Assembly: GCA_049970495.1 (NCBI GenBank)
Contig: JBMFMV010000018.1
Span: 1-28,291 of the forward strand
Origin: a bacterium
GTDB lineage: Bacteria; DUMJ01
Length of the DNA: 28,291 bases
Reading direction: 5' to 3'
Part shown: piece after piece, positions 4,176-20,005 of the stretch
Position numbering within the stretch: the first letter of the stretch is position 1
Layout: every line of letters begins with the position of its first letter
The notes under the pieces: generated by a model
What the model was told of the DNA's origin: nothing
Seen by the model: the letters and a program-made list of their open reading frames with translations, nothing else
The model's database searches: none
Made by a program: the position numbers and the translations under genes

Positions 4176-5318
4176 TTAGCAAAGAGTAAGCGCCTTAATC
4201 AATCCCCCAATTTGATAAGAGACCCATTCCAATTGTCTCTTCGTATTTCTTATAGATTCTTCTAGGGTTATAGGTCCTCTTGTGATTGAGAATAACGCAT
4301 CTACTAGCCCTTCTTTTATCAGTATATCAGCATCTTCATCTACAGCTCCACCTAATAATATTACAGGGATTGACCTTTCTTTAGCCTTCTTTGCTATTCC
4401 TGCAGGTCCTTTACCAAATATTGTCTGTCCGTCTATTTTACCTTCACCGCTTATAACTATATCCACTCCTTTTAGCTTTTCTTCTATATCCAGCGTCTCC
4501 AACACTACGTCAATTCCCGGTCTTAGTTGGGCATTTAAGAAGGCAACTAAACCCCCTCCTAAACCACCCGCTGCTCCAGCACCTGGGAGGTTTAATATAT
4601 CCTTATTCAAGTCTCTCTTAATTATTTGGGCAAAATTAAACAATGCCTTGTCTAGTTCTTCTATTAATTCTTTAGTTCCACCTTTCTGTGGTCCATATAC
4701 GTATGAAGCCCCTTCAGGTCCACAGAGGGGATTTTTTACATCTGCCATCACTATAACTTCGCACTGTTTTGCTAAAGGATGGAAATTACTCATATCAATA
4801 GAAACAAGATCTCTAAGTGCTAATCCTCCAAACGGCAATTCCCTGCCTTCTTTATCTAAGAGTCTTACCCCTAAAGCCTGTGCCATTCCAGCCCCACCAT
4901 CATTAGTGGAACTCCCGCCTATCCCTACTAATATCCTTTTTACACCTCTCTCTAGAGCTTCTTTTATAAGTTCTCCTACTCCATATGTTGTAGTAATGGC
5001 AGGGTTTCTCTTCTCTTTTGGAACTAGGGCTAAACCAGAAACTCTTGCCATTTCTATAACCGCTGTCTTTCCATCACCGAGAATTCCAAATTTGGCTTTT
5101 ATCTTCTCTCCTAAAGGTCCAGTTACTTCTTTTTCTATAAATTGCCCATTAGTGGCTTCTACTAAGACCTCGATAGTTCCATCCCCCCCGTCTGCTATTG
5201 GGAGAACTACAATAGCACTATTAGGGAGGGCTTTTAAAAGCCCTCCCTTTATAGCCTCCCCAGCCTCTCTGGCTGAGAGGGCTTCCTTAAATGCATTAGG
5301 AGCTACTAGTATTTTCAT
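4176..5318 (-). CDS. glxK: Glycerate kinase (GlxK/GarK family)
   Basis: [57 protein letters not shown] motifs. Confidence 0.95.
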
Positions 5319-6289
5319 TTCTTTAGCACTTCTGGATTTACCGGATTTGGAGGTGTCTTCCCCGCTAAGACAGCTAGGAGATTCTCAGCCGCCATTGTGG
5401 CCATCTTAGTCCTTGTTTCTACACTTGCGCTAGCTATATGGGGAAGTAGTACAGTATTTTCGCATTCAGCCAGTCCTGGAACAAGTTTAGGCTCGAACTC
5501 ATAGACATCTAAACCGGCTCCTGCTATCCATCCTTCTTTCAAAGCTTTTACTAGTGCATTTTCATCTACCACAGGACCCCTAGATGTATTTATAAGATAG
5601 GCAGTCTTTTTCATCTTCCTTAATCTTTCTTCATTTATCAGGTGATATGTCTCAGGAGATAGATAGGTATGGAGAGAAACAAAGTCGCTCTGTTCTAAAA
5701 GTTCATCTAGAGATACAAATGTGGCGTTAAGTTCCTTTTCAAGCTCTTCAGGGATTCTTCTTATATCATTGTATAAAACCTTCATATTAAACCCCTTTGC
5801 CCTTCTTGCTACAGCTTGTCCAATCCTTCCCATCCCTACAATACCTAGTGTCTTTCCATAGACATCCTGGCCAAGGAAAAGCATAGGGGCCCAGCCTTCA
5901 TACTTTCCTGCTCTTGTAAATTTATCTGCCTCCACTATTCTTCTGGCAGTAGCTAAAATGAGAGCCCAGGCTAGGTCTGCTGTAGTTTCAGTAAGGACTC
6001 CTGGCGTATTAGTTACTACTATTCCTCTCTTTGTTGCCTCATTTACGTCTATATTATCATATCCTACTGCATAGTTACTTACGACCTTTAGTTGGGGACC
6101 TGCAGCATCGAATACCTCTGCATCAATCTTATCAGTCAAAAGGCATAGGATACCATCCTTACCCTTTACTGCTTGAAGCAATTCTTCTCTAGTTAATACT
6201 CTGTCATATGGATTTACTTCTACTTCATGTTCTTTTCTAATCATCTCTATTCCAGGCTCTGGAATTCTTCTTGTTATGTAAACTTTCAA
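5315..6289 (-). CDS. D-glycerate dehydrogenase / glyoxylate-hydroxypyruvate reductase (D-2-hydroxyacid dehydrogenase family)
   Basis: [51 protein letters not shown]. Probable TTG start at 6289, 6 nt after GGAGGTG (track start GTG 6298 lies within the RBS). Confidence 0.92.
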
Positions 6290-6301
6290 TACATTCACCT
6301 C

Positions 6302-7648
6302 CTAGCTTAATAAGAATCCTGATGATGATATTATATCACCTAGACCTACGGTAAGTTTGGGTGACTGAACAACTTTAGTAGGTACTATTATCAGATTAAA
6401 GTTATTTATCCTTTTAATACCTTCATAACCTGTTAGTGTAATAGTCGGAACTTCTAATCCCTTCTTTAGGTCTTCTAGAGTCTCATATCTGCCGAGTAAA
6501 GATCTTGTAGCAGCAAGGATAGCAGAGAATAGAAGGGCAGTTCTTTCATTAATCTCATTCTTCTCTCTAGTAATAGATATATAGTGTCCTAGTGTATGCA
6601 GTTGGATCCTCTTTAAAGGGATCCTCTCCATAACCTTTAGTAAACCATCTATAAGTTTTACTATAGGAAATTTAGAATCTTTAAGCTCCTTTGATAGTTC
6701 CTGTTCCCCAATATCATTGAGTAGTGTTGCAAACTCAATCTCGTTTAATCCAAGGCTATCTATTATAGGGAATATGTGTTTTGCTACTAGCCTTCTTATT
6801 ATAGGGCTTCCAATAGAGGCAAATTCATAATGGACTCTTAGTCCTAGTTTTTCTTTCATTTGGCTTACAAATTCGGCTACTGGAACAATAAAGTCCTCGC
6901 AGGTTTTACCTTCAGGGTATTTCTCTAAGAGGATATGAAAACCGGACACCAAAAAGTGTGTAAACTTATCTGGTATAAGGAATATATCTCTTTTGAATTC
7001 TTCAGCTACCCTTAATCTACAATTGACAGGATTCCATGCTGCGATAAATCTATTAGCTCTAGGAGCTTCTATTAACAAGTTATCTAACTCTAATCTCAGT
7101 CCCCTACTATATTCTAATATCCAGTGTATAGCAAATATACCCTGATCTTTCCATGCCTTTCTAGGAGACTTGAGAACTGGCTTTTCATCATCTCTGGTTA
7201 GGACAAAGAGATTTTCTCTCTCAGGGAAAAGTTCAGCCAATTCTTTAGTAAGCGGATTTGCATATACTAGGATCTTACTCAATGGTAGTGGTGATAATAG
7301 ACTGGCCATATTAGCAGAGGTTCCTCCTAATCTTAGTTGGTCATAACCAATGTTTTCTAAAGCCCACTTAAATGTCTCCTCATTCTCTATCATCCTTTGA
7401 TAGGCTAGTCCCTCTCTAATAGATATAAGGAGATCGGTAATAAGGTCTTCTGGTGTTCTTATGACCGATGTTGGTTCGTTAGGGATATCTTTTATATGTG
7501 GAAATTGATCTAATAATCTTTTTAGGAGTATCTCATCTACCCTCTTTAATCCATCTATAGTTGAATGGAATCCGGTAATTACTCCTGGAATCCTCTGTAG
7601 CTTCTTCCAACCTTCCTCTAATGCTCCTCTATAGAGCTCTTCCCACAT
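6302..7648 (-). CDS. ADP-dependent glucokinase/phosphofructokinase family sugar kinase
   Basis: 448 aa; RLGGTSANMA, IHWILEY..G, APRANRFI, SGFH, SLGLNEIE (NExE), HTLGHY and C-terminal PKLTVGLGDIISS match the ADP-PFK/GK signature order; RBS AAGGAGG. Confidence 0.88.
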   Translation of the reverse strand: MWEELYRGALEEGWKKLQRIPGVITGFHSTIDGLKRVDEILLKRLLDQFPHIKDIPNEPTSVIRTPEDLITDLLISIREGLAYQRMIENEETFKWALENIGYDQLRLGGTSANMASLLSPLPLSKILVYANPLTKELAELFPERENLFVLTRDDEKPVLKSPRKAWKDQGIFAIHWILEYSRGLRLELDNLLIEAPRANRFIAAWNPVNCRLRVAEEFKRDIFLIPDKFTHFLVSGFHILLEKYPEGKTCEDFIVPVAEFVSQMKEKLGLRVHYEFASIGSPIIRRLVAKHIFPIIDSLGLNEIEFATLLNDIGEQELSKELKDSKFPIVKLIDGLLKVMERIPLKRIQLHTLGHYISITREKNEINERTALLFSAILAATRSLLGRYETLEDLKKGLEVPTITLTGYEGIKRINNFNLIIVPTKVVQSPKLTVGLGDIISSSGFLLS

Positions 7649-8498
7649 TGTTTAAAGCCTCCTTGTATGCCTCTTCGGAAGGATAGTTTTCATGAAGGAT
7701 GAGTTTCATAGCTAGAGCCATTACTTCTGGTTTCTCACTTAAGAATACGTTCCTACCAACAACAAAACCACTAGCTCCTGCCCTTATCCCATCTTCAAAA
7801 TCTCTTAAAACATCTAGAGGATTATCGCGTTTGGGACCTCCTAAGAGCAAGACTTTTGCATTTACACTATCTACTATTCTCTTAAACTGTTCTATACCTT
7901 CCTCTCTAGAATTAGACTTGACATAAGGAATTTTGAGAATAGGCACTCTAAAATCATTGGTTATTATAGAAACCCACTTTATTGCCTCATAGGACCTATC
8001 CATAGTTAATTTTCCATCTTCTAGGTTCATATATAGAGGTTCTACCATAAGGGGCATAGACCATTTCTCACATTCTTCCACAACATTGGTAAGTAGAGTT
8101 AGTTGGTCATTGGTGAGTCGATTATTTTTGTTAAACTTTATAAGGAGCTTTACACCATCAAGACCCCATCTAAGGGCGGTCTCTACCGTGCAGACAAGTC
8201 TATCGTCCATTTCAAATCTTGTCCCAGCTAGGCCTGTCCTATTAAGGCTTAGAACTAGTCCTTTGCCTCTTAAGTTACCATTGACTATAAGTTGGGCTAG
8301 CGGTTCTTTTGTAGTCATTATAGCATCAAGATAGGGTGATAGTCTTTCTATAAGGGAGATTAAATCGCTAAAGTTGTCTATCCCTTCTTGGATACCTCGC
8401 TGTCTATGGTCTATGGCCAAGACCATAGCCTTTCCATCTTTTGGAAAGATGCGAGATATCCTATTGGTTATTCCTATATCATAGAAAAGTGACTCCAT
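7629..8498 (-). CDS. Class I (DeoC/LacD/FbaB-like) aldolase, resembling Cgl0159-type aldolases of iol clusters
   Basis: LAIDH, PLMVEP, Schiff-base-type LKIPY, LLGG, GFVVGRN. The segment NRTGLAGTRFEMDDR is recalled as typical of iol-associated aldolases. Confidence 0.8.
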   Translation of the reverse strand: MESLFYDIGITNRISRIFPKDGKAMVLAIDHRQRGIQEGIDNFSDLISLIERLSPYLDAIMTTKEPLAQLIVNGNLRGKGLVLSLNRTGLAGTRFEMDDRLVCTVETALRWGLDGVKLLIKFNKNNRLTNDQLTLLTNVVEECEKWSMPLMVEPLYMNLEDGKLTMDRSYEAIKWVSIITNDFRVPILKIPYVKSNSREEGIEQFKRIVDSVNAKVLLLGGPKRDNPLDVLRDFEDGIRAGASGFVVGRNVFLSEKPEVMALAMKLILHENYPSEEAYKEALNNVGRAL

Positions 8499-8509
8499 CG
8501 AATTCCTCC

Positions 8510-9532
8510 TTAGTCGTTTATCACTACTGCTTTTCCAGTTCTGCTAGACTCATATACTGCAAGTATAAATTGTACAGCTCTTCTACCATCCTCTCCAGTG
8601 ATGCTAGGGGTCCTATTGTATAACACCGCTTCTGCCATGTCTTTTATCTGCGCTATATGTCCTTTTATAAAAAGGGCTCGAGGATCGCTTGAGGCGGATT
8701 CACCTTGAGAAGATAATTCTCTTTTTTCTTCTCCTTTTATTAACCAATCCCTTACAAATGGGCCTTCTACTACTACACTACCATTTGTACCATGAACTTC
8801 TATTCTCTCTTTAAAACCGGGATAACAGGCAGTTGATCCTTGAATCACTCCCAAGGCTCCATTCTTATACTTTATTATAGCTATAGCTACGTCTTCTACT
8901 TCTATATTATGTGCTAATGTTCCACAGTATGCAGTTATCTCCTTCACAGGTCCGGCAAGATAAAGTAGCTGGTCTACAAAATGTACAGACTGGTTCATTA
9001 ATGCTCCACCGCCATCTAGAGCCCAGGTACCACGCCAACCTGCACTATCATAGTATTCTTGAGTTCTCCACCACTTTACATAGGCATCAGCCATAACAAG
9101 CTTACCAAGCTTTCCAGACTCTATAGCTGACTTTAATTCTTTAATCCCTGGATCAAATCTATGCTGAGATATAACGCTAAGCTTAACTCCGGCCTCTTGA
9201 CATGCCTCTATAAGGGCATCAGCCTTTTCTAAAGTAATATCTATAGGTTTTTCTACTAAGACATGTTTTCCTGCTTTTGCTGCTTTTATCCCTAACTCTG
9301 CATGTAAACCACTGGGGACACAGATATTTATTACGTCTATATCATTTCTAGTTAGCATTTCATCGTAGTTAGTATACCAGTCCACTCCATATTTCTCTCC
9401 TAACTCTTTAGCTCTCTCTGGTATAATATCACATACAGCCTTAAGTTCTGCTATCTCTATATTCTTTATAGCTTCTGCATGAGTAGGACCTATAACTCCG
9501 CACCCAACTATACCAAATCTTACTTTATCCAT
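8510..9532 (-). CDS. Gfo/Idh/MocA family NAD(P)-dependent oxidoreductase
   Basis: GIVGCGVIG, GKHVLVEKP, WRGTWALDGGGALMNQSVHFVD. Confidence 0.93.
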   Translation of the reverse strand: MDKVRFGIVGCGVIGPTHAEAIKNIEIAELKAVCDIIPERAKELGEKYGVDWYTNYDEMLTRNDIDVINICVPSGLHAELGIKAAKAGKHVLVEKPIDITLEKADALIEACQEAGVKLSVISQHRFDPGIKELKSAIESGKLGKLVMADAYVKWWRTQEYYDSAGWRGTWALDGGGALMNQSVHFVDQLLYLAGPVKEITAYCGTLAHNIEVEDVAIAIIKYKNGALGVIQGSTACYPGFKERIEVHGTNGSVVVEGPFVRDWLIKGEEKRELSSQGESASSDPRALFIKGHIAQIKDMAEAVLYNRTPSITGEDGRRAVQFILAVYESSRTGKAVVIND

Positions 9533-9536
9533 ATTA

Positions 9537-10358
9537 TCACCTCTCTATCTCGGATAGTATTTTCTTTAATGCCTGAGATGCCTTTTTAAAGAGTTCAGGA
9601 CCGGAAAACCCTTGGAACTGTCCACTATGGGCAAGGTGTGGTTCAAGACTTAAAAAATATTCTCTACCTTTCTTCTTTAAAGACAGTAATATTTCTTTTA
9701 TCTCTCCATCCCCTTCTCCCGCTGGGACCTCAACTCCATCTGAGAAATGAGCATCCTTTATATGCACATACTCTATATAACTCTCTAGAGGTAGATAAGC
9801 CTCTCTAAATGGTTTTACTCCACACTGTATAAAGTTTGATGGGTCAAATACTGCCTTTAAGTTTGGGGAGTTTATACTCTTTAATATATCTAGACATCTT
9901 TCAGGTGTATCTCCGTATATCTTCTTTTCGTTTTCATGTAACAGTATAATCCCTTCTTTTTCTGCTATTTTTACAAGTTCCCCTAGTCTCTCTAGCGATA
10001 TCTTTCTAAGTTCTTCTATGCTCATCCCTTCTTCTGGGTAGAAAGAGAATATCCTAACATATGGGGTTTCAAAAAAATGTGCTAATTTTATGGCGTTCTG
10101 AAGTTTCTCCTTCTGTCCTTCCATATCTTCCCTCGCCCTAACTTTTCCAATTGGGGAAGCTATAGCCGATATCTTTATTCCATACTTATCTAACATCTCT
10201 TTTATCTTGTGGCTATCTTCTTCGGTTAGAGCCACTACATTTTTCCCTAAGGCACTTCTTAATTCTAGATAACCTATTTCCTCTTCTTTTAATACCATTA
10301 ATTGTTCTTCAAAGTCAAATGATATCTCATCACCAAATCCAGAAAGTTTATACCACAT
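9537..10358 (-). CDS. Sugar phosphate isomerase/epimerase (xylose-isomerase-like TIM barrel)
   Basis: LSGFGDEI, SPIGK, HENE, FDPSNF, HIKDA, SLEPHL metal-ligand pattern. Confidence 0.88.
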   Translation of the reverse strand: MWYKLSGFGDEISFDFEEQLMVLKEEEIGYLELRSALGKNVVALTEEDSHKIKEMLDKYGIKISAIASPIGKVRAREDMEGQKEKLQNAIKLAHFFETPYVRIFSFYPEEGMSIEELRKISLERLGELVKIAEKEGIILLHENEKKIYGDTPERCLDILKSINSPNLKAVFDPSNFIQCGVKPFREAYLPLESYIEYVHIKDAHFSDGVEVPAGEGDGEIKEILLSLKKKGREYFLSLEPHLAHSGQFQGFSGPELFKKASQALKKILSEIER

Positions 10359-10370
10359 CTTCTTCCCTCC

Positions 10371-11168
10371 TTATAGTTCTTTAATTATCTGTTCAGCCCA
10401 TTTTATCCAAGCATGTTTAGTGTCATCTCTAGGGATATTTACAGGATCCTCTCCAGCTAATACCCATAGATAGTAGAGAGAATATCCTGGTGCGGCTACT
10501 ACAGGATGGTACCCTTTAGTAATAGGAAGGGCAGTATTATCTGTTACCGCATAGACCTCATCTATATCACCCTCCTCTGTATAGACCCTTTGGAAACCAA
10601 ATCCACTAGATGGATTTAACCTGTACAGATAGACTTCTTCCATCCTCCATTCGTAAGGAGGATTGTGTTTATCATGTTTATGCGGTGGATAACTAGACCA
10701 ATTTCCGGGAGGATTAACCGTCTCTCCCATTATTATATGTTTAGCTCCAACCTTCCTATCTATAACCTGAGTTACATATCTTTTCCAATTATGCGTACCA
10801 ACAACTCTTCTTTCTATCTCGTTAGGAGATATTACTACTACATCTACGTCATTTGGTTCTGACTTTACAGTTGCAAATATCAACTCACTATTGTCTAGCG
10901 CTCTTATTTCTACCTTTTTGTTAGGTGGAATATATATTCCCCAAGGTTTGCTATTAAATATCTCACTTCTAGGTCCTAGTATATTTTTTCCGTTGACTTC
11001 CACTCTTCCGCTTCCTAAGATACAACCAATTTCTCTTTTTTCTTCTCCTAAGAATATATTTTCTCCGGCTTTCAATCTAAGGACAAATAGTTTTATCCAC
11101 TCTAAACCCTCTACAGGGACTTCTAAAATTCCCACTCCTTCTGGCACCTTAGCTAATTTAGGACTCAT
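10371..11168 (-). CDS. iolB: 5-deoxy-glucuronate isomerase (IolB/KduI family)
   Basis: GNWSSYPPHKHD, EEVYLY, GFGFQRVYT, GYHPVVAAPGYSLYYLWVLAG. Confidence 0.92.
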   Translation of the reverse strand: MSPKLAKVPEGVGILEVPVEGLEWIKLFVLRLKAGENIFLGEEKREIGCILGSGRVEVNGKNILGPRSEIFNSKPWGIYIPPNKKVEIRALDNSELIFATVKSEPNDVDVVVISPNEIERRVVGTHNWKRYVTQVIDRKVGAKHIIMGETVNPPGNWSSYPPHKHDKHNPPYEWRMEEVYLYRLNPSSGFGFQRVYTEEGDIDEVYAVTDNTALPITKGYHPVVAAPGYSLYYLWVLAGEDPVNIPRDDTKHAWIKWAEQIIKEL

Positions 11169-11921
11169 TTAACCCCACTCCTTTCTTAAGAATTCAAGGC
11201 TTTTAGGTAATTCGCGCTTTTTATCCTCCCATCTACATTCTACTGAGATAAACCCCTTATATTCCACCTCTTTAAGTACATTAAATAGAGACTTAAAATT
11301 ATAGTCTTTTTTGCCTGGTGCTACCCTTTCTCTATCTGATACATGGACGTGATAAAGTTTCTCTTTTATTCTATAGATATTATATAGGGGTTCATTTTCT
11401 AAATCTGCATGGTAATTATCTATAAGTACCCCAATATTTGGACTATTAATTTTGTCTGCAAATTCTAAGGCTTCTAATGTTGTATTTATAATATTGCTCT
11501 CTTTCTTGTTTAGAGGTTCTATAGCTATCTTTATATCGTATTCCTTTGCATATTTATCTACTATATTTAGGAATTCTATAATCTGTAAACTAGCTGTTTC
11601 TTTAGAGAATCCTTCTGGAAAAGATCTAGACCTACCACTTCCAAAGACAACTATCTTTCCTCCAAGAAAATTTACTCTTCCTAAGGCTTCTTTTATATAT
11701 GCCTCTACTTTTTTTAAATCAACATTAGAACCAGTAATTGGTAGATCCCCTGGTAGGAACACATTAAAAGAATAGGCTTTAAGATTTACTTTATCAAGCT
11801 CTTCCTTTACTTCAGTTATATTAGCCTGCATAATAGATGTTACAGCAAACTCTATAAAATCTGCCCCACTAGAACTTATAACTTCTATTTCTTCTATTGA
11901 TCCACAACAACCAAAATTCAT
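11169..11921 (-). CDS. D-tagatose/D-psicose 3-epimerase-like TIM-barrel epimerase
   Basis: IAIEPLNKKESNIINT, DNYH, HVHVSD..R.APG, ISVE give the E/D/H/E ligand set. Confidence 0.85.
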   Translation of the reverse strand: MNFGCCGSIEEIEVISSSGADFIEFAVTSIMQANITEVKEELDKVNLKAYSFNVFLPGDLPITGSNVDLKKVEAYIKEALGRVNFLGGKIVVFGSGRSRSFPEGFSKETASLQIIEFLNIVDKYAKEYDIKIAIEPLNKKESNIINTTLEALEFADKINSPNIGVLIDNYHADLENEPLYNIYRIKEKLYHVHVSDRERVAPGKKDYNFKSLFNVLKEVEYKGFISVECRWEDKKRELPKSLEFLRKEWG

Positions 11922-12919
11922 TATTCCCTCCTTGAAGTTGTATTTCTAATGATAAGTTCGGGCTCAAGCACCAGGTTTTGTCTTTCTCCTTTCATTAACT
12001 TAAGAAGGAGCTCCACAGCCTTTCTCCCTAGCTCTTCTTTAGGTTGTTTGACTGTAGTAAGGGGAGGATCAGTGAAATTAGAGAAGAATATGTTATCGAA
12101 CCCAATGATTGATAGTTCTTCAGGGATCTTTATACTTAATTCTTTTGCTGCCTTTATTACCCCAAATGCCATCAAATCATTGTAAGTAAATATAGCAGAA
12201 GGAGGATCCTTAGTGTAGAGTAACTTTACTGCTTCTCTATAACCTGATTCTGCTGTAGGAGTATTAAATGAGACCAAGTTAGGATTATATCTTATCCTAG
12301 ATTCTATAAGTGCCTTTTTATAACCAGACAATCTCCTTTTTGCTGCCTCAGAAAGACTAGGTCCGTTTATAAAGGCGATTCTTGAATGGCCAAGATTTAC
12401 CAAATATTTAGTTGCTAGATATCCACCCTTTTCCATATCTACTGAAACATATGATATTTTTGGATGTTCTAATATTCTATTTATAACTACTATTGGTAAT
12501 CCTTCTTCAGCTAGATTAATGATATGTTCATTTGATATCCTAGAGGCAGAGATTATAACTCCGTCAACTGGACCACGAGAGAAAAAGTCTAGATAATTTG
12601 TCTCTTTTTCTTCTGATTCTGAGGTATTTCCTAGAAGGATGGTATATCCAGCTTCACTAGCCTTTTCTTCTGCTCCCCTTACTAGCTCAGGGAAAAAGGG
12701 ATTAGTAATATCAGTTATGAGAAGTCCAATATTCTTAGTACTTCTAGTCGTTAAAATTTGCCCTCTATAATTAGGTTTGTAATGTAGTTTCTTCGCTACT
12801 TCTATTATTCTCTGTCTAGTTCTTTCACTTATCCCTGGGTGGTTATTTAATGCCCTACTAACAGTAGAAGGGGATACCCCCGCTAATTTTGCTACTTCTT
12901 GGATATTTGCTCTTTTCAT
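11921..12919 (-). CDS. LacI family transcriptional regulator
   Basis: IQEVAKLAGVSPSTVSRALN HTH, YKPN hinge, NPFF, IIGFDN, PPLTTVKQP. Confidence 0.97.
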   Translation of the reverse strand: MKRANIQEVAKLAGVSPSTVSRALNNHPGISERTRQRIIEVAKKLHYKPNYRGQILTTRSTKNIGLLITDITNPFFPELVRGAEEKASEAGYTILLGNTSESEEKETNYLDFFSRGPVDGVIISASRISNEHIINLAEEGLPIVVINRILEHPKISYVSVDMEKGGYLATKYLVNLGHSRIAFINGPSLSEAAKRRLSGYKKALIESRIRYNPNLVSFNTPTAESGYREAVKLLYTKDPPSAIFTYNDLMAFGVIKAAKELSIKIPEELSIIGFDNIFFSNFTDPPLTTVKQPKEELGRKAVELLLKLMKGERQNLVLEPELIIRNTTSRRE

Positions 12920-13427: not shown

Positions 13428-14330
13428 ATGAAAAGATACCTAAGATTATTAGTGTTTTTTATAGTACCAAGTCTCTTCCTTATGGGACTTTACGGTTGCG
13501 ATGGTTGTAACCCAGAGTCTATAGTAAATTTGGGAAGAATCGTGTTTGCAAGTGGACGTGATGGAGACCTTGAAATTTACACAATGAATCCGGATGGAAC
13601 TGGTCTAACTAAGATTACAGATAATCAAGCTCTTGACTATTGTCCCTCTTTTTCTAAAGATGGTTCAAAGATTGCCTTTGTATCTGAACAGGAGGGAAAC
13701 CCGGAAATTTACACAATGAATAGGGATGGTACTAATCAGGTTAGAATTACAAATAATCCCGCTTGGGATTATTATCCAAGTTTTTCTCCAGATGGACAAA
13801 AGATTTTATTCTATTCTAGACGTGATGGAAATGATGAGATATATCTCTATGATCCGACGGTTATTTCTCATCCTCAACTGACCAATCTTACCAATGATCC
13901 AAGTTATGATTTGCATCCATCCTTTTCCCCAGATGGGCGAAAAATTGTCTTTGTTTCTGACCGTGATGGAGATACTGAGATCTATACAATGAGTATAGAT
14001 GGTACTAATCTAACTAAGCTTACTAATAATAATAGTCAAGAATATTTTCCTCGTTTTTCACCAGATGGTGGTAAAATCGTATTTACATCCAATCTTGATG
14101 GAAATGATGAGATCTATATAATGAATGCAGATGGCTCTGGTATAACTAGACTTACAAATGACCCAAGTCAAGCTTGGTCCCCCTGTTTTTCATTACTCGG
14201 TACAAAAATTGTCTTTCAATCTAAACGTAGTGGAAGTTGGGAAATATATGTAATGAATATTAATGGAACTGACTTGACTAAGCTTACAGATCATCCCTCT
14301 GGTAATGTGGATCCTTTCTGGGGACGTTAA
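13428..14330 (+). CDS. TolB-like beta-propeller (PD40 repeat) lipoprotein
   Basis: Signal peptide with lipobox-like LYGC; about six P.FSPDG.KI.F.S.RDG..EIY.MN.DG repeats. Confidence 0.9.
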   Translation: MKRYLRLLVFFIVPSLFLMGLYGCDGCNPESIVNLGRIVFASGRDGDLEIYTMNPDGTGLTKITDNQALDYCPSFSKDGSKIAFVSEQEGNPEIYTMNRDGTNQVRITNNPAWDYYPSFSPDGQKILFYSRRDGNDEIYLYDPTVISHPQLTNLTNDPSYDLHPSFSPDGRKIVFVSDRDGDTEIYTMSIDGTNLTKLTNNNSQEYFPRFSPDGGKIVFTSNLDGNDEIYIMNADGSGITRLTNDPSQAWSPCFSLLGTKIVFQSKRSGSWEIYVMNINGTDLTKLTDHPSGNVDPFWGR

Positions 14331-14359: not shown

Positions 14360-14398
14360 TAGGGAGTAGATAAAGAGTCTACTCCCTAGTTTCCTTTT
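14360..14398 (+). terminator. Intrinsic terminator between convergent genes
   Basis: Perfect 11-bp stem TAGGGAGTAGA (14360-14370) / TCTACTCCCTA (14378-14388) followed by GTTTCCTTTT. Confidence 0.75.
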
Positions 14399-15129
14399 GT
14401 TGAATTTAAGATTTTCTCTGCATTTCTATGCAGTATGTTAAATTTATCTTCCTCTTTTATCTTACTGCCTCTTACCCAGCCAATAGCTGGTCTTGGGTCT
14501 ATAAATGGAAAGTCTGTCCCAAATAAAATCCTTTTGCTACCAATTTTTTCTACGTAATACTCAATTATCCCGTTATACATGGCTGAGCCCGTCAAGTCTA
14601 GATAGATATTATTAACATCCTTTGCCAGTTCTACTGCTAAAAGCATAGACCTTAAATCTCCACCTGAATGTCCCATTATAAATATTGCATTCTGATAAGA
14701 TTTAGCTATCTCTATAATTGTTCTTACGTCTCTTTCTCCCCAGGTATGTATTAAGATAGGCCATTTATGTTCATCTGCATATTTGTAAGCATATAAGTAG
14801 TTAACACCATCTATGGGATACGCGTGTGTTCCAGGATGTAACTTTATCCCGATAAATCCTTGAGAAGCTCTTTCCTTGAGCTCTTCTTCTATCCTATCTG
14901 CAAAATATGGACTTAGTGTGACGTATCCTCTGAATCTGTCTGGAAATGCCATCATAGCCTCAAGAACCATCTCATTTCCTAATTTATAATCTGGTCCTAT
15001 ACTTATAAGGGCACTTATCCACGCACTTTCCATCCCTATCCTGTCCATTATCCTTACCATAGATAGGAAGTCTCCACCATCATAATAAAAGTTAAACCAC
15101 TTTCCTAGATGGGCGTGAGCATCTATCAT
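14386..15129 (-). CDS. Amidohydrolase_2 family metallohydrolase
   Basis: IDAHAHLG, GIKLHP, ILIHT, MGHSG, LFGTDFP all intact. Confidence 0.92.
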   Translation of the reverse strand: MIDAHAHLGKWFNFYYDGGDFLSMVRIMDRIGMESAWISALISIGPDYKLGNEMVLEAMMAFPDRFRGYVTLSPYFADRIEEELKERASQGFIGIKLHPGTHAYPIDGVNYLYAYKYADEHKWPILIHTWGERDVRTIIEIAKSYQNAIFIMGHSGGDLRSMLLAVELAKDVNNIYLDLTGSAMYNGIIEYYVEKIGSKRILFGTDFPFIDPRPAIGWVRGSKIKEEDKFNILHRNAEKILNSTKGN

Positions 15130-15872
15130 AGTTCTACCTCCTGAATAAGTCTATCTGCGTTTTTATAGGCTATATAATCTTTAGCCCTCTCTGGTATGTC
15201 TGCTTTTTCTATGTAATATATAGTGGAACCAGGATTTTTATATGGAAGGTTGCTTCCAAAAATCATACGTTCTTCACCAAATCTCTTATACAAGGTCTCT
15301 ATTCCAAGAAAAGGAATATAGCCAGATAACTCTATATAAATATTTTCGTATCTTTTTAAAAGAGGGAAGATATAAGAACTTTGTCTGTATGTTAAGTCCG
15401 CTAAAACCAGTCTAAGGTTAGGATGATTTCTCAAGATAGCATATATATCTTTCCATCCTGAATTGTTTGGAGATAGTATTATTGGAATTTTTAACTCTTC
15501 TAAAAATGATAATAAGTCTCCCACTACTTCTTCTTCCAATATGAAATTATGTAAATCTGGGAAAAATCTAACTGCTTTAACTTTGTTTATTTTGAATTCT
15601 TCCAAAAGTTTATCTGGTGTATCTATTGGGAAGATATCAAGTGGTAGTAAAACCCATGCGGCATAAAGGTTAGGATAATCCTTAATCTCTTCTATTAACC
15701 TTTTGTCTCCAAAGTAGGCGTCATAATCTCTACTGTAGCTATGATAGACTAAGACCTTTTTTATATTAAATCTTTCTAGCTCCTCACTTAATCTTTTCGC
15801 GTCTAGCCAGTTGTTTAGAGGAATAATAGTAGGTTTCCCTATCATTACATTAAAATCAAAGTAGGCTCTCAT
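15126..15872 (-). CDS. Amidohydrolase-fold protein lacking metal ligands
   Basis: Same size and architecture as its neighbour (AVRFFP, HPNLRLVL, NIYIELS, MIFGSNLP) but no HxH or catalytic Asp. Confidence 0.82.
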   Translation of the reverse strand: MRAYFDFNVMIGKPTIIPLNNWLDAKRLSEELERFNIKKVLVYHSYSRDYDAYFGDKRLIEEIKDYPNLYAAWVLLPLDIFPIDTPDKLLEEFKINKVKAVRFFPDLHNFILEEEVVGDLLSFLEELKIPIILSPNNSGWKDIYAILRNHPNLRLVLADLTYRQSSYIFPLLKRYENIYIELSGYIPFLGIETLYKRFGEERMIFGSNLPYKNPGSTIYYIEKADIPERAKDYIAYKNADRLIQEVEL

Positions 15873-15881
15873 TTGTCCTTT

Positions 15882-16766
15882 TCATCCTATGTCTTGTATG
15901 TATACTTCACTGCCACTAAGATAAGAAACTTCTATAGCCTTTAAGACTTTCACTACTTCTAACATATCATCATAGTCTATAGGTAATTTAGAAGTCTTTA
16001 TCATCTCTAGAAATTTTAAGAGTCCATAATAGTATGGAGATGTAGTTTGCCTGCCATCCCAATAGCTCCATCCATTTTTGCCAAATGCAGATATAGTAAA
16101 TGTATAGACCGCATTACCAAGCATTAGAAGTTCTACTATTCTATCGTCGGGGTAGGTAAGAGTAATTGCTATATTATTGTTATTATTTACTGCTATAACT
16201 CTCTCAACTCCACTACCAAATATCTCCTGGCATAATTCTACTATATGGACGCCATAAAAGAATATACCTTGATATTCACTATTAATATCTGCAGGACCAC
16301 ATACAAACCCAGCAGTAAGAGGCCCTTTAGAAAGTAGATCTTCTTTTAATTTCACAATAGGCTCATCAAATCTAAGAGTAGAAAAGGATGTTATAGGGGT
16401 ACTTTTCTCTTTGGCTAACCTTACTATCCTCTTTGCATTTTCTATAGACGTTTCGATAGGTTTGTCTATAAATGTTGGAATACCTGCTTCGATAAATGGT
16501 TTTGAAAATTTATAGTGTATTGCGCCGTCTCTTAATACTATCATTACTGCATCTATTTTACCAATCATATCTTCAGGGTATTGAACTATCTCTGGAATAT
16601 TTCCTAATCTAGCAACCTCTTCTGTTCGATTTTTCTCGAATCCCCATATAGCTACTACTTTTGCCTCTTCCACTTTTAGCCCTTTAACGCCTTCTGGCAG
16701 ATTGGTAAGCTGTGAAAAGGCTATTGCGTGAGAATTATCAGATCCTACTATGCCAATTCTAATCAT
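15882..16766 (-). CDS. Gfo/Idh/MocA family oxidoreductase (short type)
   Basis: RIGIVGSDNSHA, PTFIDKP, FFYGVH motifs. Confidence 0.88.
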   Translation of the reverse strand: MIRIGIVGSDNSHAIAFSQLTNLPEGVKGLKVEEAKVVAIWGFEKNRTEEVARLGNIPEIVQYPEDMIGKIDAVMIVLRDGAIHYKFSKPFIEAGIPTFIDKPIETSIENAKRIVRLAKEKSTPITSFSTLRFDEPIVKLKEDLLSKGPLTAGFVCGPADINSEYQGIFFYGVHIVELCQEIFGSGVERVIAVNNNNNIAITLTYPDDRIVELLMLGNAVYTFTISAFGKNGWSYWDGRQTTSPYYYGLLKFLEMIKTSKLPIDYDDMLEVVKVLKAIEVSYLSGSEVYIQDIG

Positions 16767-16790
16767 TGGAAATCCCTCCCGATCTTAAAG

Positions 16791-16826
16791 ATAAGGGGGG
16801 GTAGCAGGATGCTATCCCCCCCTTAT
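16791..16826 (-). terminator. Strong stem-loop directly after the SBP gene (partial terminator or mRNA stabiliser)
   Basis: ATAAGGGGGGGTAGCA (16791-16806) / TGCTATCCCCCCCTTAT (16810-16826), one bulge; only CTTT follows on the minus strand. Confidence 0.7.
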
Positions 16827-16830
16827 GAAA

Positions 16831-18801: not shown

Positions 18802-18852
18802 TTTAAAACACCTCCTCCTTTTTTAATTATTCTAAAAATAGTTTACCCATCT

Positions 18853-18881
18853 ACTATAGCATTTACCCCGTCATTTATCAA
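18853..18881 (-). promoter_or_regulatory. Sigma70-type promoter of the SBP operon
   Basis: TTGATA (18881-18876), 17 bp, TATAGT (18858-18853) with extended TGn. Confidence 0.65.
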
Positions 18882-18898
18882 GCTTATTGAATAATTTA

Positions 18899-20005
18899 TT
18901 ATATCTTTTCTAGTGTGTACTTTCTTGACCCTAGCCCTAACTCTTCAGCATAAGCCAATTGAACATTCCAGTCTATCTCAGGATGTATTGCTCTAAATTT
19001 GTCTTCTCCTGGATTAAAGTTTCCGGCAAGAGCAGTTTCCTTTAATCCAATACTTTGGTTTACTAGGTCTACTGAAGCTTGATCTATTGCAACTATATCT
19101 GAGCTTCCAAGTATACCAATATCAGGAACAATGCTTGCATCATGCCAACCTGCACAGTCACAATCTGGACTTACATCCATAACAAAGTTTATAAATGCAA
19201 TTTTTGGTTCTTTAGTCTTTATTATGCCATAGGTAAATTCAACCATTTTCTCCTGTAAACCTATGGCTGATTCGTTCCATGATATCTCTATAGCAGAAGT
19301 TGGACACACGACTGCACATTCCCCACAGCCTATACAAAGTTCTGGGGTTAGCACTGCTTTTCCATTAACTAGTCTTAGGGCTCCCTGTGGACAGTGATTT
19401 ACACATCTAGCACAACCTATACAGATTTCTGGCTTTGGGTCAGGCTTAAATTGAGCGTGCTGCATCTGTTTGCCTGATCTTGGTGCGCCTCCCATACCTA
19501 CATTCTTAATAGCACCACCAAATCCGGTACCTATATGACCTTTGAAGTGTGCTAAGGATATGAGGAAATCCGCATCATGTATTCCACCTGCTATTTTTAT
19601 CTTTTTAAAATTTTTCAGGTTTACTTCTACCTCTTTGTAGTATTCTCCACTTATACCATCTGCTATTATAAGAGGAGCTCCTACAGATGAATATCCAAAA
19701 CCATTGTATATTGCCGCTTCTAAATGGTCTACCGCATTAGCTCTTTCTCCTTTGTATAGGGTATTAGCATCAGTAAGGAAGGGTTTACCTCCCATCTCCT
19801 TGACCACCTCTACAACCTGTCTTACAAATATCGGCCTTATGTATGCATGGTTACCAGGTTCTCCAAAGTGGAGCTTTATAGCGACAAGGTCCCCCTTTTC
19901 CATCCTATTTTCTAAGAGTCTCTTTGTTAAGTATCTTAGTCTCTTAAGGATTGAATTATTTTCGTTGTGAGCTCTCAGAGAGAGAAAATACACTGTGCTT
20001 TTCAT
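18899..20005 (-). CDS. DUF362 domain protein with 2x[4Fe-4S] ferredoxin insert
   Basis: VAIKLHFGE.GN, PFLTDANTLY, HFKGH, GGAIKN.GMG; two CxxCxxCxxxCP motifs; PDCDC. Confidence 0.9.
   Translation of the reverse strand: MKSTVYFLSLRAHNENNSILKRLRYLTKRLLENRMEKGDLVAIKLHFGEPGNHAYIRPIFVRQVVEVVKEMGGKPFLTDANTLYKGERANAVDHLEAAIYNGFGYSSVGAPLIIADGISGEYYKEVEVNLKNFKKIKIAGGIHDADFLISLAHFKGHIGTGFGGAIKNVGMGGAPRSGKQMQHAQFKPDPKPEICIGCARCVNHCPQGALRLVNGKAVLTPELCIGCGECAVVCPTSAIEISWNESAIGLQEKMVEFTYGIIKTKEPKIAFINFVMDVSPDCDCAGWHDASIVPDIGILGSSDIVAIDQASVDLVNQSIGLKETALAGNFNPGEDKFRAIHPEIDWNVQLAYAEELGLGSRKYTLEKI

Follow-up and report, generated by a model that had tools for sequence, protein, structure and literature searches.

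In the available portions of PMC7948494, ADP-dependent sugar kinases are described as having three specificities, for glucose, for fructose-6-phosphate (F6P) or for both, and bacterial members are mentioned in passing. The same portions assign roles to the Asp of the GxGD motif, to the NxxE/HxE metal/phosphate motifs, to an Arg at the beta-phosphate and to the ligand residues of AncMsPFK, among them Glu90 as a glucose ligand, and Lys179 and Arg212, which bind the F6P phosphate and are conserved in phosphofructokinases (PFKs) and bifunctional enzymes. A large hydrophobic residue (Ile or Leu) at position 2 of GxGD marks ADP-dependent as opposed to ATP- or PPi-dependent members, according to the accessible part of PMC5931981. 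The excerpts of PMC13267639 and PMC12696579 contain nothing on bacterial family members. Our literature search found no characterised bacterial ADP-dependent kinase, nor one with sugar-acid specificity or one encoded with iol or uronate genes. Hexuronates are degraded in the isomerase pathway by UxaC, UxuB/UxaB, UxuA/UxaA, KdgK and Eda, in which the keto-uronate is reduced and then dehydrated to 2-keto-3-deoxygluconate (KDG).

The window, a stretch of 28,291 nt, comes from a bacterial metagenome-assembled genome (MAG) and carries a kinase of this family within a catabolic operon, listed here in the order of transcription.

11921..12919, minus strand: LacI-family regulator, first gene of the operon (Pfam LacI and Peripla_BP_3)
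11169..11921, minus strand: ketose/keto-acid 3-epimerase-like TIM barrel, IolO-like (NF041099 IolO, 122 bits, below the cut-off of 300)
10371..11168, minus strand: IolB/KduI-family cupin isomerase (Pfam KduI, 242.7 bits)
9537..10358, minus strand: xylose-isomerase-like TIM barrel protein, TIM2 (Pfam AP_endonuc_2, 96.3 bits)
8510..9532, minus strand: Gfo/Idh/MocA oxidoreductase, IolG-like, not an equivalog (TIGR04380, 186 bits, below 355)
7629..8498, minus strand: class I aldolase of the DeoC/DhnA clan, Cgl0159-like (Pfam Cgl0159, 100.6 bits; DeoC, 68.8 bits)
6302..7648, minus strand: P0001, 448 aa, a member of the ADP-dependent sugar kinases from a distinct bacterial branch (Pfam PF04587)
5315..6298, minus strand: D-2-hydroxyacid dehydrogenase of the glyoxylate/hydroxypyruvate reductase type (NF009714, 449.1 bits, cut-off 455)
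4176..5318, minus strand: glycerate kinase (TIGR00045, 491.4 bits, above 168)

The genes from the LacI regulator through the glycerate kinase follow one another closely, with intergenic distances between -20 nt (an overlap) and +12 nt. The kinase and aldolase genes share 20 nt, as a sequence-only reading of this DNA had noted, and are translationally coupled; the reductase gene starts 3 nt past the kinase stop and is overlapped by 4 nt by the glycerate kinase gene, for which a tblastn search found its sole genome match on contig C18. The operon was kept in 6 of 79 related loci. A promoter-like site with 11 of 12 matches lies at 12982-12954 on the minus strand, directly 5' of the LacI gene, although the promoter and terminator scan, taken as a whole, returned no more sites than shuffled sequence.

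The sequence-only reading had called the gene at 6302..7648 an ADP-dependent sugar kinase in a bacterium, and the profile search confirmed that P0001 is a genuine full-length member of the ADP_PFK_GK family. PF04587 matched residues 22-446 over profile positions 2-429 of 430 (E 7.9e-77, 259.2 bits, cut-off 27), and P0001 was the family's sole match in the 1.99-Mb genome. The reading frame opens with ATG, 9 nt downstream of the strong Shine-Dalgarno sequence AAGGAGG, and this start is backed by an alignment of 18 sequences in which W2 and Y6 hardly vary. The motifs NEIE (302-305) and TVGLGD (433-438), both pointed out earlier, and GGTSANMA (108-115) each occur once. G435-L-G-D438, whose D438 is the catalytic Asp, N302-E-I-E305, H273-Y-E275 and R200 were invariant in the 18 sequences and kept across 244, and H351 was likewise invariant in the kinase branch. 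Leu436, at GxGD position 2, was conserved in at least 90% of the P0001 alignment, and the PPi signature RxGRGD is absent from P0001. This ADP-type residue points to ADP as the probable phosphoryl donor. In the AlphaFold2 model (pLDDT 92.2, pTM 0.90), P0001 adopts the two-domain fold, with a large Rossmann-like domain and a large lid domain, and the Foldseek matches at ranks 1-22 were all ADP-dependent glucokinase (ADP-GK) or PFK structures (TM 0.66-0.88; 0.76-0.88 for the archaeal enzymes).

The sugar pocket sets P0001 apart. The segment GGTSANMA had been suspected to differ from its archaeal counterpart, and the difference holds family-wide: GK-like and PFK-like sequences have GGQ..I, whereas the P0001 branch has GGT..N. 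When P0001 was aligned to AncMsPFK, using our own offset between chain and paper numbering, the pocket sites were H28, T30, D32, Q84, T110, N113, A173, H175, W205, N206 and H238. The signature H[VT]DQGGTNAHRWNH, or near variants of it, was found in 125 of 244 family sequences, which constitute the P0001 branch; the GK-like signature NNDEGGQI[LY]HR[YF]D[HQ] was found in 60 and the PFK-like signature NNDEGGQIKNRSRQ in 41. Compared with the GK pocket, both acidic glucose ligands are amidated in P0001 (E to Q at 84, D to N at 206), whereas the 60 GK-like sequences keep E and D at the aligned sites, and a His is gained; H175, H238 and the aromatic residue at 205 are common to P0001 and the glucokinases. 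Compared with the PFK pocket, the ligands of the F6P phosphate are lost (K179 to A173, R212 to N206), and all six F6P-phosphate contacts of AncMsPFK are changed. The top NCBIfam match was the ADP-PFK model TIGR02045 at 280 bits, which is 128 below its cut-off of 408.1, and the ADP-GK models NF010641 (232.6 bits, cut-off 554) and NF010642 (145.8 bits, cut-off 387) also fell short. Judged by NCBIfam cut-offs or by pocket residues, P0001 is neither an ADP-PFK nor an ADP-GK. The amidated acidic ligands and the gained His are as expected for an anionic sugar; however, the amidated ligands fit a phosphate- or sulfonate-bearing sugar equally well.

Carriers of the branch kinase include a cultured organism, Athalassotoga saccharophila NAS-01 (locus L074). 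In the phylogeny against archaeal GK and PFK sequences, which the sequence-only reading had proposed as a check, the P0001 branch formed a separate clade. IQ-TREE placed all 23 branch rows on one side of one branch, and the supported set (SH-aLRT 97) consisted of these rows and two signature variants; the FastTree result was comparable. These trees and signatures place P0001 in a monophyletic bacterial branch with its own invariant pocket, comprising 125 of 244 family sequences. A third, bacterial branch of the ADP-dependent sugar kinases, with about half of the sampled family sequences, is thereby defined.

The kinase and a rare Cgl0159-type class I aldolase are almost always found together. 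A Cgl0159-family gene was present in 29 of 33 kinase-carrier genomes, in one copy each, versus 1 of 14 control genomes. In a single phylum represented by 151 genomes, each of the 18 genomes with a Cgl0159-family gene was among the 21 with the kinase, and none of the 130 without the kinase had one (Fisher p 1.5e-20, genomes counted without regard to kinship). The aldolase gene lay within the kinase locus in 6 of 6 close loci and 13 of 73 distant ones, and in G012, which is without a Cgl0159-family gene, the kinase is flanked by a class II aldolase and IolB. The nearest solved relatives of the window's aldolase are 3fok ('uncharacterized protein Cgl0159', E 3e-21), MJ0400, LsrF and class I FBP aldolase. 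FBP aldolase, MJ0400 and LsrF all act on a phospho-CH2-C(=O) unit, which fits a phosphorylation next to a ketone. Besides its own invariant pocket, the branch kinase has a nearly constant companion in this aldolase, for whose family a structure has been solved. Elsewhere, the Cgl0159-type aldolase is usually fused to a xylose-isomerase-like TIM domain. Of 15 loci with the fused gene, 11 have an aspartate-aminotransferase-like gene next to it and three a ComB-like phosphatase, and no model explains these neighbours well. An aromatic-amino-acid role for the aldolase, raised by its likeness to the ADH synthase MJ0400 and by aspartate-aminotransferase-like and ThrB neighbours, was rejected, as AroB scored over the cut-off in 27 of the 33 carriers.

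Our preferred reading, held tentatively, is that P0001 is a kinase for a 5-keto-hexonate (keto-uronate) and feeds an aldolase that yields dihydroxyacetone phosphate (DHAP) and tartronate semialdehyde. The IolB-like isomerase would make the 5-keto-hexonate, for example D-fructuronate or D-tagaturonate, from a hexuronate, and the IolO-like epimerase would adjust it. P0001 would probably phosphorylate the primary hydroxyl beside the keto group of this six-carbon keto sugar acid, and the co-translated class I aldolase would split the phospho-product in the manner of FBP aldolase into DHAP and tartronate semialdehyde. The latter would then be converted to phosphoglycerate by the operon's hydroxypyruvate reductase and glycerate kinase; their position after the kinase in this lineage fits tartronate semialdehyde as the C3 product. 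The upstream oxidoreductase and TIM proteins may release glucuronate from glucuronides through a 3-keto intermediate.

The IolO-like protein scored 91 bits with D-psicose 3-epimerase, and among solved structures it comes closest to TM_0416 (E 4e-27) and then to tagatose/psicose 3-epimerases. The reductase scored 288.7 bits with GhrB, whereas the NCBIfam and PDB matches of TIM2 were weak. The oxidoreductase is closest to 3q2i/3q2k (E 1e-63), also matches 8tdi, 'glucuronide-3-dehydrogenase' (E 1e-29), and resembles uronate-type 3-dehydrogenases; a cluster of such oxidoreductases and 'sugar phosphate isomerases' cleaves glucuronides, according to the available part of bioRxiv 10.1101/2024.03.25.586180. 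The IolB-like protein has 2qjv, 'IolB-like', as its nearest solved relative. However, it scored 203.1 bits with TIGR04378 IolB (cut-off 205), a near-equivalog of 5-deoxy-glucuronate isomerase, which favours a deoxy substrate over the keto-uronate. The divergent, unfused state of the window's aldolase (100 bits, versus more than 195 bits elsewhere) also counts against the keto-uronate reading.

Several distant loci provide an acid-sugar context. TRAP transporters occur in three kinase loci, a CdaR regulator in one and a heparin-sulfate-lyase-like gene in one. A beta-glucuronidase-like GH2 gene (488 bits, cut-off 544), a GH4 gene and a transporter lie upstream of the kinase in five Mesoaciditogaceae-type loci, and a beta-glucuronidase-like GH2 gene adjoins a high-scoring IolB in G022. 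However, the kinase lies among unrelated housekeeping genes in most distant loci (Bacillota group L017-L033; LpxK/WaaA group, 8 to 9 loci), so the acid-sugar context comes from a minority of loci. UxaC was found in 1 of 33 kinase carriers versus 7 of 14 controls and, in one phylum, in none of 18 carriers of the kinase-aldolase pair versus 36 of 133 other genomes (p 0.007, kinship ignored); these lineages may simply be non-users of uronates. Eda, the KDPG aldolase, had no match in the window's genome.

A wider claim, which we regard as possible but on balance doubtful, is that the kinase and the Cgl0159-type aldolase form the core of an undescribed glycolysis-like hexuronate route in at least six bacterial phyla, replacing the UxaC/KDG pathway and ending in lineage-specific C3-acid sinks. 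This route would run from hexuronate through keto-uronate and 1-phospho-keto-uronate, with ADP as donor, to DHAP and tartronate semialdehyde. The C3 acid would be taken up here by the reductase and the glycerate kinase, by an aminotransferase in Bacillota as well as Omnitrophota-like genomes and, in Mesoaciditogaceae, by a transketolase-like enzyme. The window's genome has no orthologue of the transketolase-like protein of 740-767 aa that is a neighbour in the Thermotogota loci. If true, the route would include the first ADP-dependent sugar-acid kinase, and the Cgl0159 family would have its first function. With either a keto-uronate or 2-deoxy-5-keto-D-gluconate (DKG) as substrate, the kinase family would gain a new acceptor class, the Cgl0159 family would get a function, and a gap would be filled for many UxaC-less anaerobes and thermophiles with beta-glucuronidase-like genes.

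Among the alternatives, the leading one of an ordinary kind is a glycolytic ADP-PFK that fills a missing PFK step, with the DhnA-type aldolase acting as FBP aldolase; it is unlikely but has genomic support. In this 143-contig, 95.5%-complete MAG, PfkA/PPi-PFK (PF00365) and KDPG aldolase are absent, and a cluster of class II FBP aldolase, ROK kinase and phosphoglucose isomerase (PGI) is present without a PFK, so that a PFK role is possible. The close relatives G001 and G002 are also without PfkA, and a ROK gene adjoins the kinase in three PfkA-less carriers. The best sequence matches of P0001 are ADP-PFKs (6c8z, E 1e-72), and archaeal class I FBP aldolases are remote relatives of the operon's aldolase. 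However, the pocket lacks every F6P-phosphate contact described above, and the pocket signature of P0001 is that of its branch, in which PfkA scored over the cut-off in 25 of 32 sampled genomes. The shortfall against the ADP-PFK cut-off points the same way. In addition, the gene sits in the LacI-headed operon and not with the glycolytic cluster, and PfkB-family kinases of uncertain specificity remain as PFK candidates in the genome. Should P0001 be a PFK after all, its phosphate site would still be a remodelled one, and the lineage's missing PFK would be accounted for.

The sequence-only reading had placed the gene in the IolC slot of a bacterial operon and proposed a keto-sugar-acid kinase that replaces IolC non-orthologously. 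On this account, P0001 would act on 2-deoxy-5-keto-D-gluconate made by IolB, and the aldolase, as an IolJ analogue, would release DHAP and malonate semialdehyde, the lower half of inositol catabolism; we consider this rather improbable. The operon is real, its IolB-like gene falls within two bits of the equivalog cut-off, and the neighbourhood of IolB plus a putatively DHAP-forming aldolase is found there as well as in the distant loci L047 and L068, where IolB equivalogs (233 and 222 bits) adjoin the kinase, in L047 in the order class II aldolase, IolB, kinase. PfkB-type IolC is absent from the window's genome and from 32 of 33 carriers; the genome's best match to IolC TIGR04382 is another gene (189 bits, cut-off 300), and P0001 itself falls into another Pfam family. 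One Thermotogota MAG has an IolG-IolE-IolD cluster next to the kinase cluster, in divergent orientation, and the available part of PMC9007349 already proposes DeoC/LacD-related proteins (DUF2090) as alternative aldolases for phosphorylated DKG.

However, the locus does not amount to an iol operon in which a single gene has been exchanged. The window's genome (95.5% complete) has no equivalog of IolC, IolD, IolE or IolA (best IolD match 242 bits, cut-off 715; IolE 51 bits, cut-off 290), and IolD was found in none of the 11 carriers with a high-scoring IolB. All five IolD carriers are without IolC, from which one might conclude that the ADP-dependent kinase is their IolC. This was rejected, since they use iol clusters that need no kinase, and their lack of IolC is thus no argument. 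The variants, read from the four IolD regions that hold more than IolD, comprise a split transketolase, a PGK-like protein, a type II GAPDH and a malate racemase/tartrate-DH-like protein in G003 and G030, and a transaldolase-like protein with IolA in G019 and G024. In G018, a true IolC (372 bits) lies beside IolB, with the ADP-dependent kinase and the aldolase elsewhere. The aldolases match neither DUF2090 nor the IolC-aldolase fusion model, and the genes downstream of the kinase fit hydroxypyruvate and glycerate rather than malonate semialdehyde. What survives of the earlier proposal is a pocket unlike both known specificities in a context of keto sugar acids and an aldolase; the end genes, which fit tartronate semialdehyde, do not agree with its IolC part.

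It is likewise improbable that the substrate is another sugar, such as a neutral ketose or aldose, a ketose phosphate (e.g., tagatose-6-phosphate), KDG or a sulfosugar (e.g., sulfofructose), with the acid-sugar context being incidental. The pocket residues common with glucokinases would suit this, and the P2B11-type glucuronide-cleaving cluster also cleaves 6-phospho, 6-sulfo and sulfoquinovoside substrates in the accessible text of its report. In L055, the kinase and aldolase genes come after those for a KpsF-like sugar-phosphate isomerase and a CUT1-type ABC transporter, L064 has a KDPG-aldolase-domain gene upstream, and the aminotransferase-like and ComB-like neighbours of the fused aldolase gene are also compatible with it. 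Against it, the loci with TRAP, CdaR or beta-glucuronidase genes speak for carboxylates. A glucokinase was rejected, as the genome has no glucokinase gap: eight of its proteins pass the Pfam cut-off for ROK, and the gene for one of these belongs to the PGI/FBP aldolase cluster. KDG kinase, suggested by KduI-family, lyase and KDPG-aldolase neighbours, was also rejected: KDG has no ketone beside the phosphorylated carbon and would misfit the phospho-CH2-C(=O) chemistry of the aldolase's solved relatives. Sulfofructose kinase, although chemically attractive, was set aside because no annotated locus contains sulfoquinovosidase (GH31), sulfite-handling, other sulfur-handling or sulfolactaldehyde genes.

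It is highly improbable that P0001 is an inactive or regulatory remnant of a gene acquired from archaea, for although a degenerate sister sequence exists (P0186, catalytic D to E, R200 to V), all catalytic and nucleotide-binding motifs of P0001 are intact and invariant across the branch, its model is confident (pLDDT 92), and the gene has a strong Shine-Dalgarno sequence, translational coupling and a conserved operon.

Compared with known systems, P0001 shares its Pfam family and fold with the archaeal ADP-PFKs (AncMsPFK 6c8z/6xio, P. horikoshii 1u2x/3drw; TM 0.77-0.87), together with HxE, NxxE, GxGD, the beta-phosphate Arg and the Leu at GxGD position 2. Their chemistry, phosphorylation of a primary hydroxyl beside a ketone followed by aldol cleavage to DHAP, is also that proposed for P0001. 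However, P0001 is only about 31-33% identical to them, falls in a separate clade, has its F6P-phosphate contacts replaced, scores 280 bits against 408, and comes from a bacterial host and a catabolic operon. With the ADP-GKs (T. litoralis 1gc5/4b8s, P. furiosus 1ua4, mouse 5ccf), it shares the fold (TM up to 0.88), and like them it has His at 175 and 238, an aromatic side chain at 205 and no counterpart of the PFK lysine. Their Glu, also found in bifunctional enzymes, is Gln84 in P0001 and their Asp is Asn206, with the further changes N28H, Q110T and I113N; P0001 reaches 233 bits against a cut-off of 554, and the genome already has ROK kinases.

The IolC/IolJ (or IolC-DUF2090) step follows the same logic as the one proposed here, with an IolB-type isomerase, a kinase acting on CH2OH beside a ketone, and an aldolase giving DHAP and a C3 acid-aldehyde. 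It differs in the PfkB fold of its kinase, as opposed to ADP_PFK_GK, in the presence of IolD, IolE and IolA, in its IolJ/DUF2090 aldolases, which are replaced here by a member of the uncharacterised Cgl0159 family, and in its malonate semialdehyde product, for which the downstream genes here suggest tartronate semialdehyde. The P2B11-type cluster, which cleaves glucuronides via a 3-keto intermediate (bioRxiv 10.1101/2024.03.25.586180, as far as its available text goes), resembles the operon in having a Gfo/Idh/MocA oxidoreductase beside xylose-isomerase-like TIM proteins, which flank it here. However, it has two oxidoreductases and neither kinase nor aldolase, and the operon's oxidoreductase resembles 8tdi modestly and is closer to 3q2i/3q2k; a P2B11-like role, by analogy and for the upstream half of the operon only, is our guess. 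The isomerase pathway would share with the proposed route the same hexuronates and keto-uronate intermediates, and some carrier genomes have beta-glucuronidase-like genes beside the kinase or IolB. Yet 32 of 33 carriers are without UxaC and this genome is without Eda, and the proposed route would phosphorylate and cleave the keto-uronate directly.

The kinase gene of the window encodes a single complete protein, P0001:

6302..7648, minus strand, kinase P0001, ATG start, 448 aa

P0001 matched Pfam PF04587 (ADP_PFK_GK) over profile positions 2-429 of 430 (E 7.9e-77, 259 bits), confirming the sequence-only reading of this gene as an ADP-dependent sugar kinase, and it is the only PF04587 gene in the window's genome (1.99 Mb, 143 contigs, 95.5% complete). 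The NEIE (302-305) and TVGLGD (433-438) motifs and the GGTSANMA segment (108-115) pointed out in that reading each occur once, and its 20-nt overlap with the aldolase gene was recovered, the aldolase ORF ending at 7629. We regard the start as correctly called because AAGGAGG lies 9 nt 5' of the ATG and W2 and Y6 are near-invariant among relatives. Structure prediction agreed with the reading: the AlphaFold2 model (18 relatives as input) was confident (pLDDT 92.2, pTM 0.90), and its top structural matches were all ADP-dependent gluco- or phosphofructokinases (TM 0.66-0.88). P0001 is an equivalog of neither ADP-PFK nor ADP-GK by the NCBIfam cut-offs (280 bits against 408 and 233 against 554, respectively). 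HxE (273/275), NxxE (302/305), R200, H351, and GLGD with D438 are intact and invariant in P0001 and its relatives. PMC5931981 gives the second GxGD position as Ile/Leu in ADP-dependent members, a small residue in ATP-dependent members, and Arg in the PPi enzyme. Since P0001 has Leu436 there, ADP is most likely the phosphoryl donor.

The sugar pocket was mapped by placing the residues listed for the F6P complex of AncMsPFK (PMC7948494) on P0001 via a HMMER alignment; the shift from chain to paper numbering was worked out in the present analysis.

Sugar-site residues of AncMsPFK and their counterparts in P0001
N32, H28
N34, T30
D36, D32
E90, Q84
Q116, T110
I119, N113
K179, A173
N181, H175
R206, R200
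S211, W205
R212, N206
Q244, H238
D471, D438

All six contacts to the F6P phosphate listed in that paper are altered in P0001, including K179 and R212, which the authors describe as conserved among both ADP-PFKs and bifunctional enzymes. An exhaustive HMMER search of 1.84 billion proteins yielded 594 representatives of the family, and an alignment of 244 sequences of 400-560 aa, taken from 263 family proteins, contained three types of pocket signature.

Pocket types among the 244 aligned sequences
P0001 branch, H[VT]DQGGTNAHRWNH or near variants, 125
GK-like, NNDEGGQI[LY]HR[YF]D[HQ], 60
PFK-like, NNDEGGQIKNRSRQ, 41
Other, no signature given, 18

H175, H238, and an aromatic residue at 205 are common to the P0001 branch and the glucokinases. 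However, the branch has amides in place of both acidic glucose ligands (E84Q, D206N) and an extra His at 28, as would be expected for a negatively charged sugar; a carboxylate, phosphate, or sulfonate would be equally compatible.

Phylogenetic analysis showed that the P0001 branch is a third main branch of the ADP_PFK_GK family. The IQ-TREE tree (69 rows, random subsample) placed all 23 branch rows on one side of a branch, with an SH-aLRT of 97 for these rows plus two signature variants. The FastTree tree (161 rows) agreed: the clade spanned by 42 branch rows comprised 44 rows, with a support of 82. The best identity was 33% to both GK-like and PFK-like sequences. According to MAG labels, the branch occurs in Bacillota/Limnochordia, Thermotogota, Omnitrophota, Latescibacterota, Chloroflexota, Bacteroidota, and Halanaerobiales, and in one cultured strain, Athalassotoga saccharophila NAS-01. 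P0186, a sister protein of the bacterial branch, is a possible pseudo-kinase: its active site is degenerate, with the catalytic Asp changed to Glu, the beta-phosphate Arg to Val, and GG to CG. Two Thermotogota genomes (G110 and G114) with UxaC and without a detected Cgl0159 gene encode much more divergent ADP_PFK_GK matches (103 bits) that may belong to a different subfamily. Searches of non-subscription literature turned up neither a characterised bacterial member of the family nor any sugar-acid specificity within it. Rodionova et al. have reportedly worked on Thermotoga inositol catabolism.

The kinase gene belongs to an operon of nine minus-strand genes spaced by -20 to +12 nt and followed by the his operon. 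In transcription order, all on the minus strand, these are:

Gene 1, LacI regulator
Gene 2, IolO-like ketose/keto-acid epimerase-type TIM barrel (122 bits, below 300; best solved relative TM_0416)
Gene 3, IolB/KduI cupin (203.1 bits, cut-off 205)
Gene 4, second TIM barrel, specificity not assigned
Gene 5, Gfo/Idh/MocA oxidoreductase (IolG model 186, below 355)
Gene 6, Cgl0159/DeoC-type class I aldolase
Gene 7, ADP_PFK_GK kinase P0001
Gene 8, glyoxylate/hydroxypyruvate reductase (449 bits, cut-off 455)
Gene 9, glycerate kinase

The complete arrangement recurred in 6 of 79 related loci (kinase identity 69-89%). The sequence-only reading had put the kinase in the IolC slot of a bacterial operon. 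An IolB-like cupin and an aldolase are present, but the window's genome has no equivalog of IolC (best 189, below 300), IolD (242, below 715), IolE (51, below 290), or IolA (336, below 448.5), so this operon does not represent a single-gene replacement in a canonical inositol operon. The oxidoreductase is closest to 3q2i/3q2k (E 1e-63), which we take to be UDP-GlcNAc-uronate 3-dehydrogenases, and also matches the solved 'glucuronide-3-dehydrogenase' 8tdi (E 1e-29). Such oxidoreductases, together with 'sugar phosphate isomerases', cleave glucuronides through a 3-keto intermediate, as shown in a preprint (10.1101/2024.03.25.586180).

A second minus-strand gene row in the window (14386-20944) holds a 6-phosphogluconate-dehydrogenase-like gene (458 bits), a DUF362 gene with two 4Fe-4S motifs, a family-5 solute-binding protein of 656 aa, a truncated Gfo/Idh/MocA gene, and two Amidohydro_2 genes without an NCBIfam match; this row is possibly another module for sugar acids or lactones. 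Between the two operons lies a lone plus-strand gene for a PD40/WD40-like beta-propeller (13428-14330) with weak matches to the oligogalacturonate-lyase family (Pectate_lyase22, 55 bits), and an H+-pyrophosphatase gene occupies the window start (2-814). Positions 4176-12919 were found in two public runs from two studies (shares 0.94 and 0.40), both labelled hot springs metagenome; the former may be the source sample.

The kinase is linked to Cgl0159, the family of the aldolase, much more strongly genome-wide than at the locus level. A homologue of the aldolase lay within 13 of 73 more distant loci, often as a ~700-aa protein in which a xylose-isomerase-like TIM domain is fused to a Cgl0159 domain, whereas 29 of 33 carrier genomes (genomes with the kinase) had exactly one Cgl0159-family gene, compared with 1 of 14 control genomes. 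In the A. saccharophila phylum (151 genomes), the kinase family occurred in 21 and Cgl0159 in 18; all 18 were among the 21, and none among the 130 others (Fisher p 1.5e-20, uncorrected for shared ancestry). Four carriers lack Cgl0159; in G012, one of them, the kinase is flanked instead by a class II aldolase and an IolB equivalog, a displacement within the same isomerase-kinase-aldolase module. Solved relatives of the window's aldolase are the uncharacterised protein Cgl0159 (3fok), MJ0400, LsrF, and archaeal class I FBP aldolase. To our knowledge, these all act on a phospho-CH2-C(=O) unit, which argues that the kinase would phosphorylate a CH2OH beside a ketone.

We tentatively favour a route through 5-keto-hexonate, in which hexuronate would be converted to DHAP and tartronate semialdehyde, the latter going on to phosphoglycerate. 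Hexuronate release from glucuronides by the oxidoreductase and TIM genes is a guess. The IolB-like cupin would convert hexuronate to 5-keto-hexonate, whose stereochemistry the IolO-like epimerase might adjust; P0001 would transfer phosphate from ADP to the CH2OH adjoining the ketone; the aldolase would split the product into DHAP and tartronate semialdehyde; and the reductase and glycerate kinase would form phosphoglycerate, via hydroxypyruvate or directly. A keto-uronate closely resembles F6P, a carboxylate replacing the phosphomethyl group, which would rationalise the recruitment of this family and its rebuilt anion site. A glyoxylate-carboligase-like TPP enzyme gene (716 bits, below 791) with an IclR regulator elsewhere in the genome is a possible second source of tartronate semialdehyde; close to it, a KDG-kinase-like PfkB gene adjoins another xylose-isomerase-like TIM gene (all these genes: G000 C13:857-3309 and 10318-12077, L102).

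Module neighbours in three lineages would, as we infer, be plausible sinks for hydroxypyruvate but not for malonate semialdehyde. The window lineage has the reductase and glycerate kinase in this place, Bacillota and Omnitrophota-like genomes have an aminotransferase, and Mesoaciditogaceae have a transketolase-like enzyme. Around the stand-alone fused TIM-Cgl0159 gene (L115-L130, in 16 carrier genomes), an aspartate-aminotransferase-like gene directly adjoins it in 11 of 15 loci, in two gene orders and two phyla; a homoserine kinase gene does so in six loci and a ComB-like (2-phosphosulfolactate-phosphatase-family) gene in three Bacillota loci. The transketolase-like gene (740-767 aa; TIGR00232 121 bits, below 682) adjoins the kinase in 10 Thermotogota loci (L061, L063, L072-L078, L082) and has no orthologue in the window's genome.

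Acid or uronate genes accompany the kinase in several relatives. TRAP transporters were found in three kinase loci, a CdaR-type sugar-diacid regulator in one, and a heparin-sulfate-lyase-like gene in one; five Mesoaciditogaceae-type loci carry, upstream of the kinase, GH4, a membrane transporter, and a beta-glucuronidase-like GH2 (488 bits, cut-off 544; next best beta-galactosidase model at most 187). High-scoring IolB (at least 196 bits) occurred in 11 of 33 carriers, none of which had IolD; in G022 it adjoins another beta-glucuronidase-like GH2. UxaC, the usual uronate isomerase, has no match in the window's genome and was present in 1 of 33 carriers compared with 7 of 14 control genomes. 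Within one phylum, it was found in none of 18 kinase-plus-aldolase genomes and 36 of 133 others (p 0.007), but p was only 0.16 when all 21 kinase-family matches, including two divergent ones, were counted. Most of the distant loci, however, place the kinase among unrelated housekeeping genes, which cautions against reading too much into this context. In the Bacillota group these are UPF0029, Exo_endo_phos, and, on the other strand, a beta-eliminating lyase, and 8 to 9 Omnitrophota-like loci have LpxK, Kdo transferase, and glycosyltransferase.

A glycolytic ADP-PFK, which we consider fairly unlikely, would fill a gap in the window's genome: PFK counts as missing because a class II FBP aldolase-ROK-PGI cluster is present (G000 C4:23000-27000; L131 5204-9299) and neither PfkA/PPi-PFK (PF00365) nor KDPG aldolase/Eda (PF01081) was found in this 95.5%-complete assembly, two close relatives also lacking PfkA. 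However, the pocket has lost the phosphate ligands, the gene is part of a regulated catabolic operon, and PfkA is present in 25 of 32 sampled carrier genomes of the branch with the same pocket. An IolC replacement acting on a 2-deoxy substrate, a close cousin of the proposed scheme, would suit the near-equivalog IolB and the gene arrangements at two carrier loci (L047, L068), but it appears unlikely given the absent IolD, IolE, and IolA, the reductase and glycerate kinase downstream, and a Chloroflexota genome (G018) in which a true IolC adjoins IolB while the ADP-kinase lies separately with a KpsF-like isomerase, an ABC transporter, and an aldolase. Some other substrate (neutral ketose, ketose phosphate, KDG, or sulfofructose) is improbable, and a dead relic hardly credible.

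IolC was absent from all five IolD-positive carriers. The argument that the ADP-kinase is therefore IolC fails, since four of the clusters (G003, G030, G019, G024) are kinase-independent variants. Two of them (L105, G030:C9:24000-43999; L111, G003:C124:90000-109999) contain IolG, IolE, IolD, and a divergent IolB (103-118 bits), and, downstream, a split transketolase, a tartrate-dehydrogenase-like or LarA-type malate racemase gene, a PGK-like gene, and type II GAPDH, with no IolC, IolJ, or IolA in the clusters; they look like a variant of inositol catabolism that depends on transketolase and ends in malate. The others hold IolD and a transaldolase-like gene, with IolA-type MMSDH (500 bits), a divergent IolB, and an SDR in L110 (G019:C1:514000-533999) and sugar ABC transporter genes in L112 (G024:C135:31000-50999). 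Neither stretch has a kinase or aldolase gene, and both may represent a transaldolase-dependent variant analogous to sulfo-TAL logic.

In the proposed hexuronate route, P0001 would work as IolC does, yet the two are non-homologous. P0001 also differs from both ADP-PFK and ADP-GK, failing the tested defining features of each.
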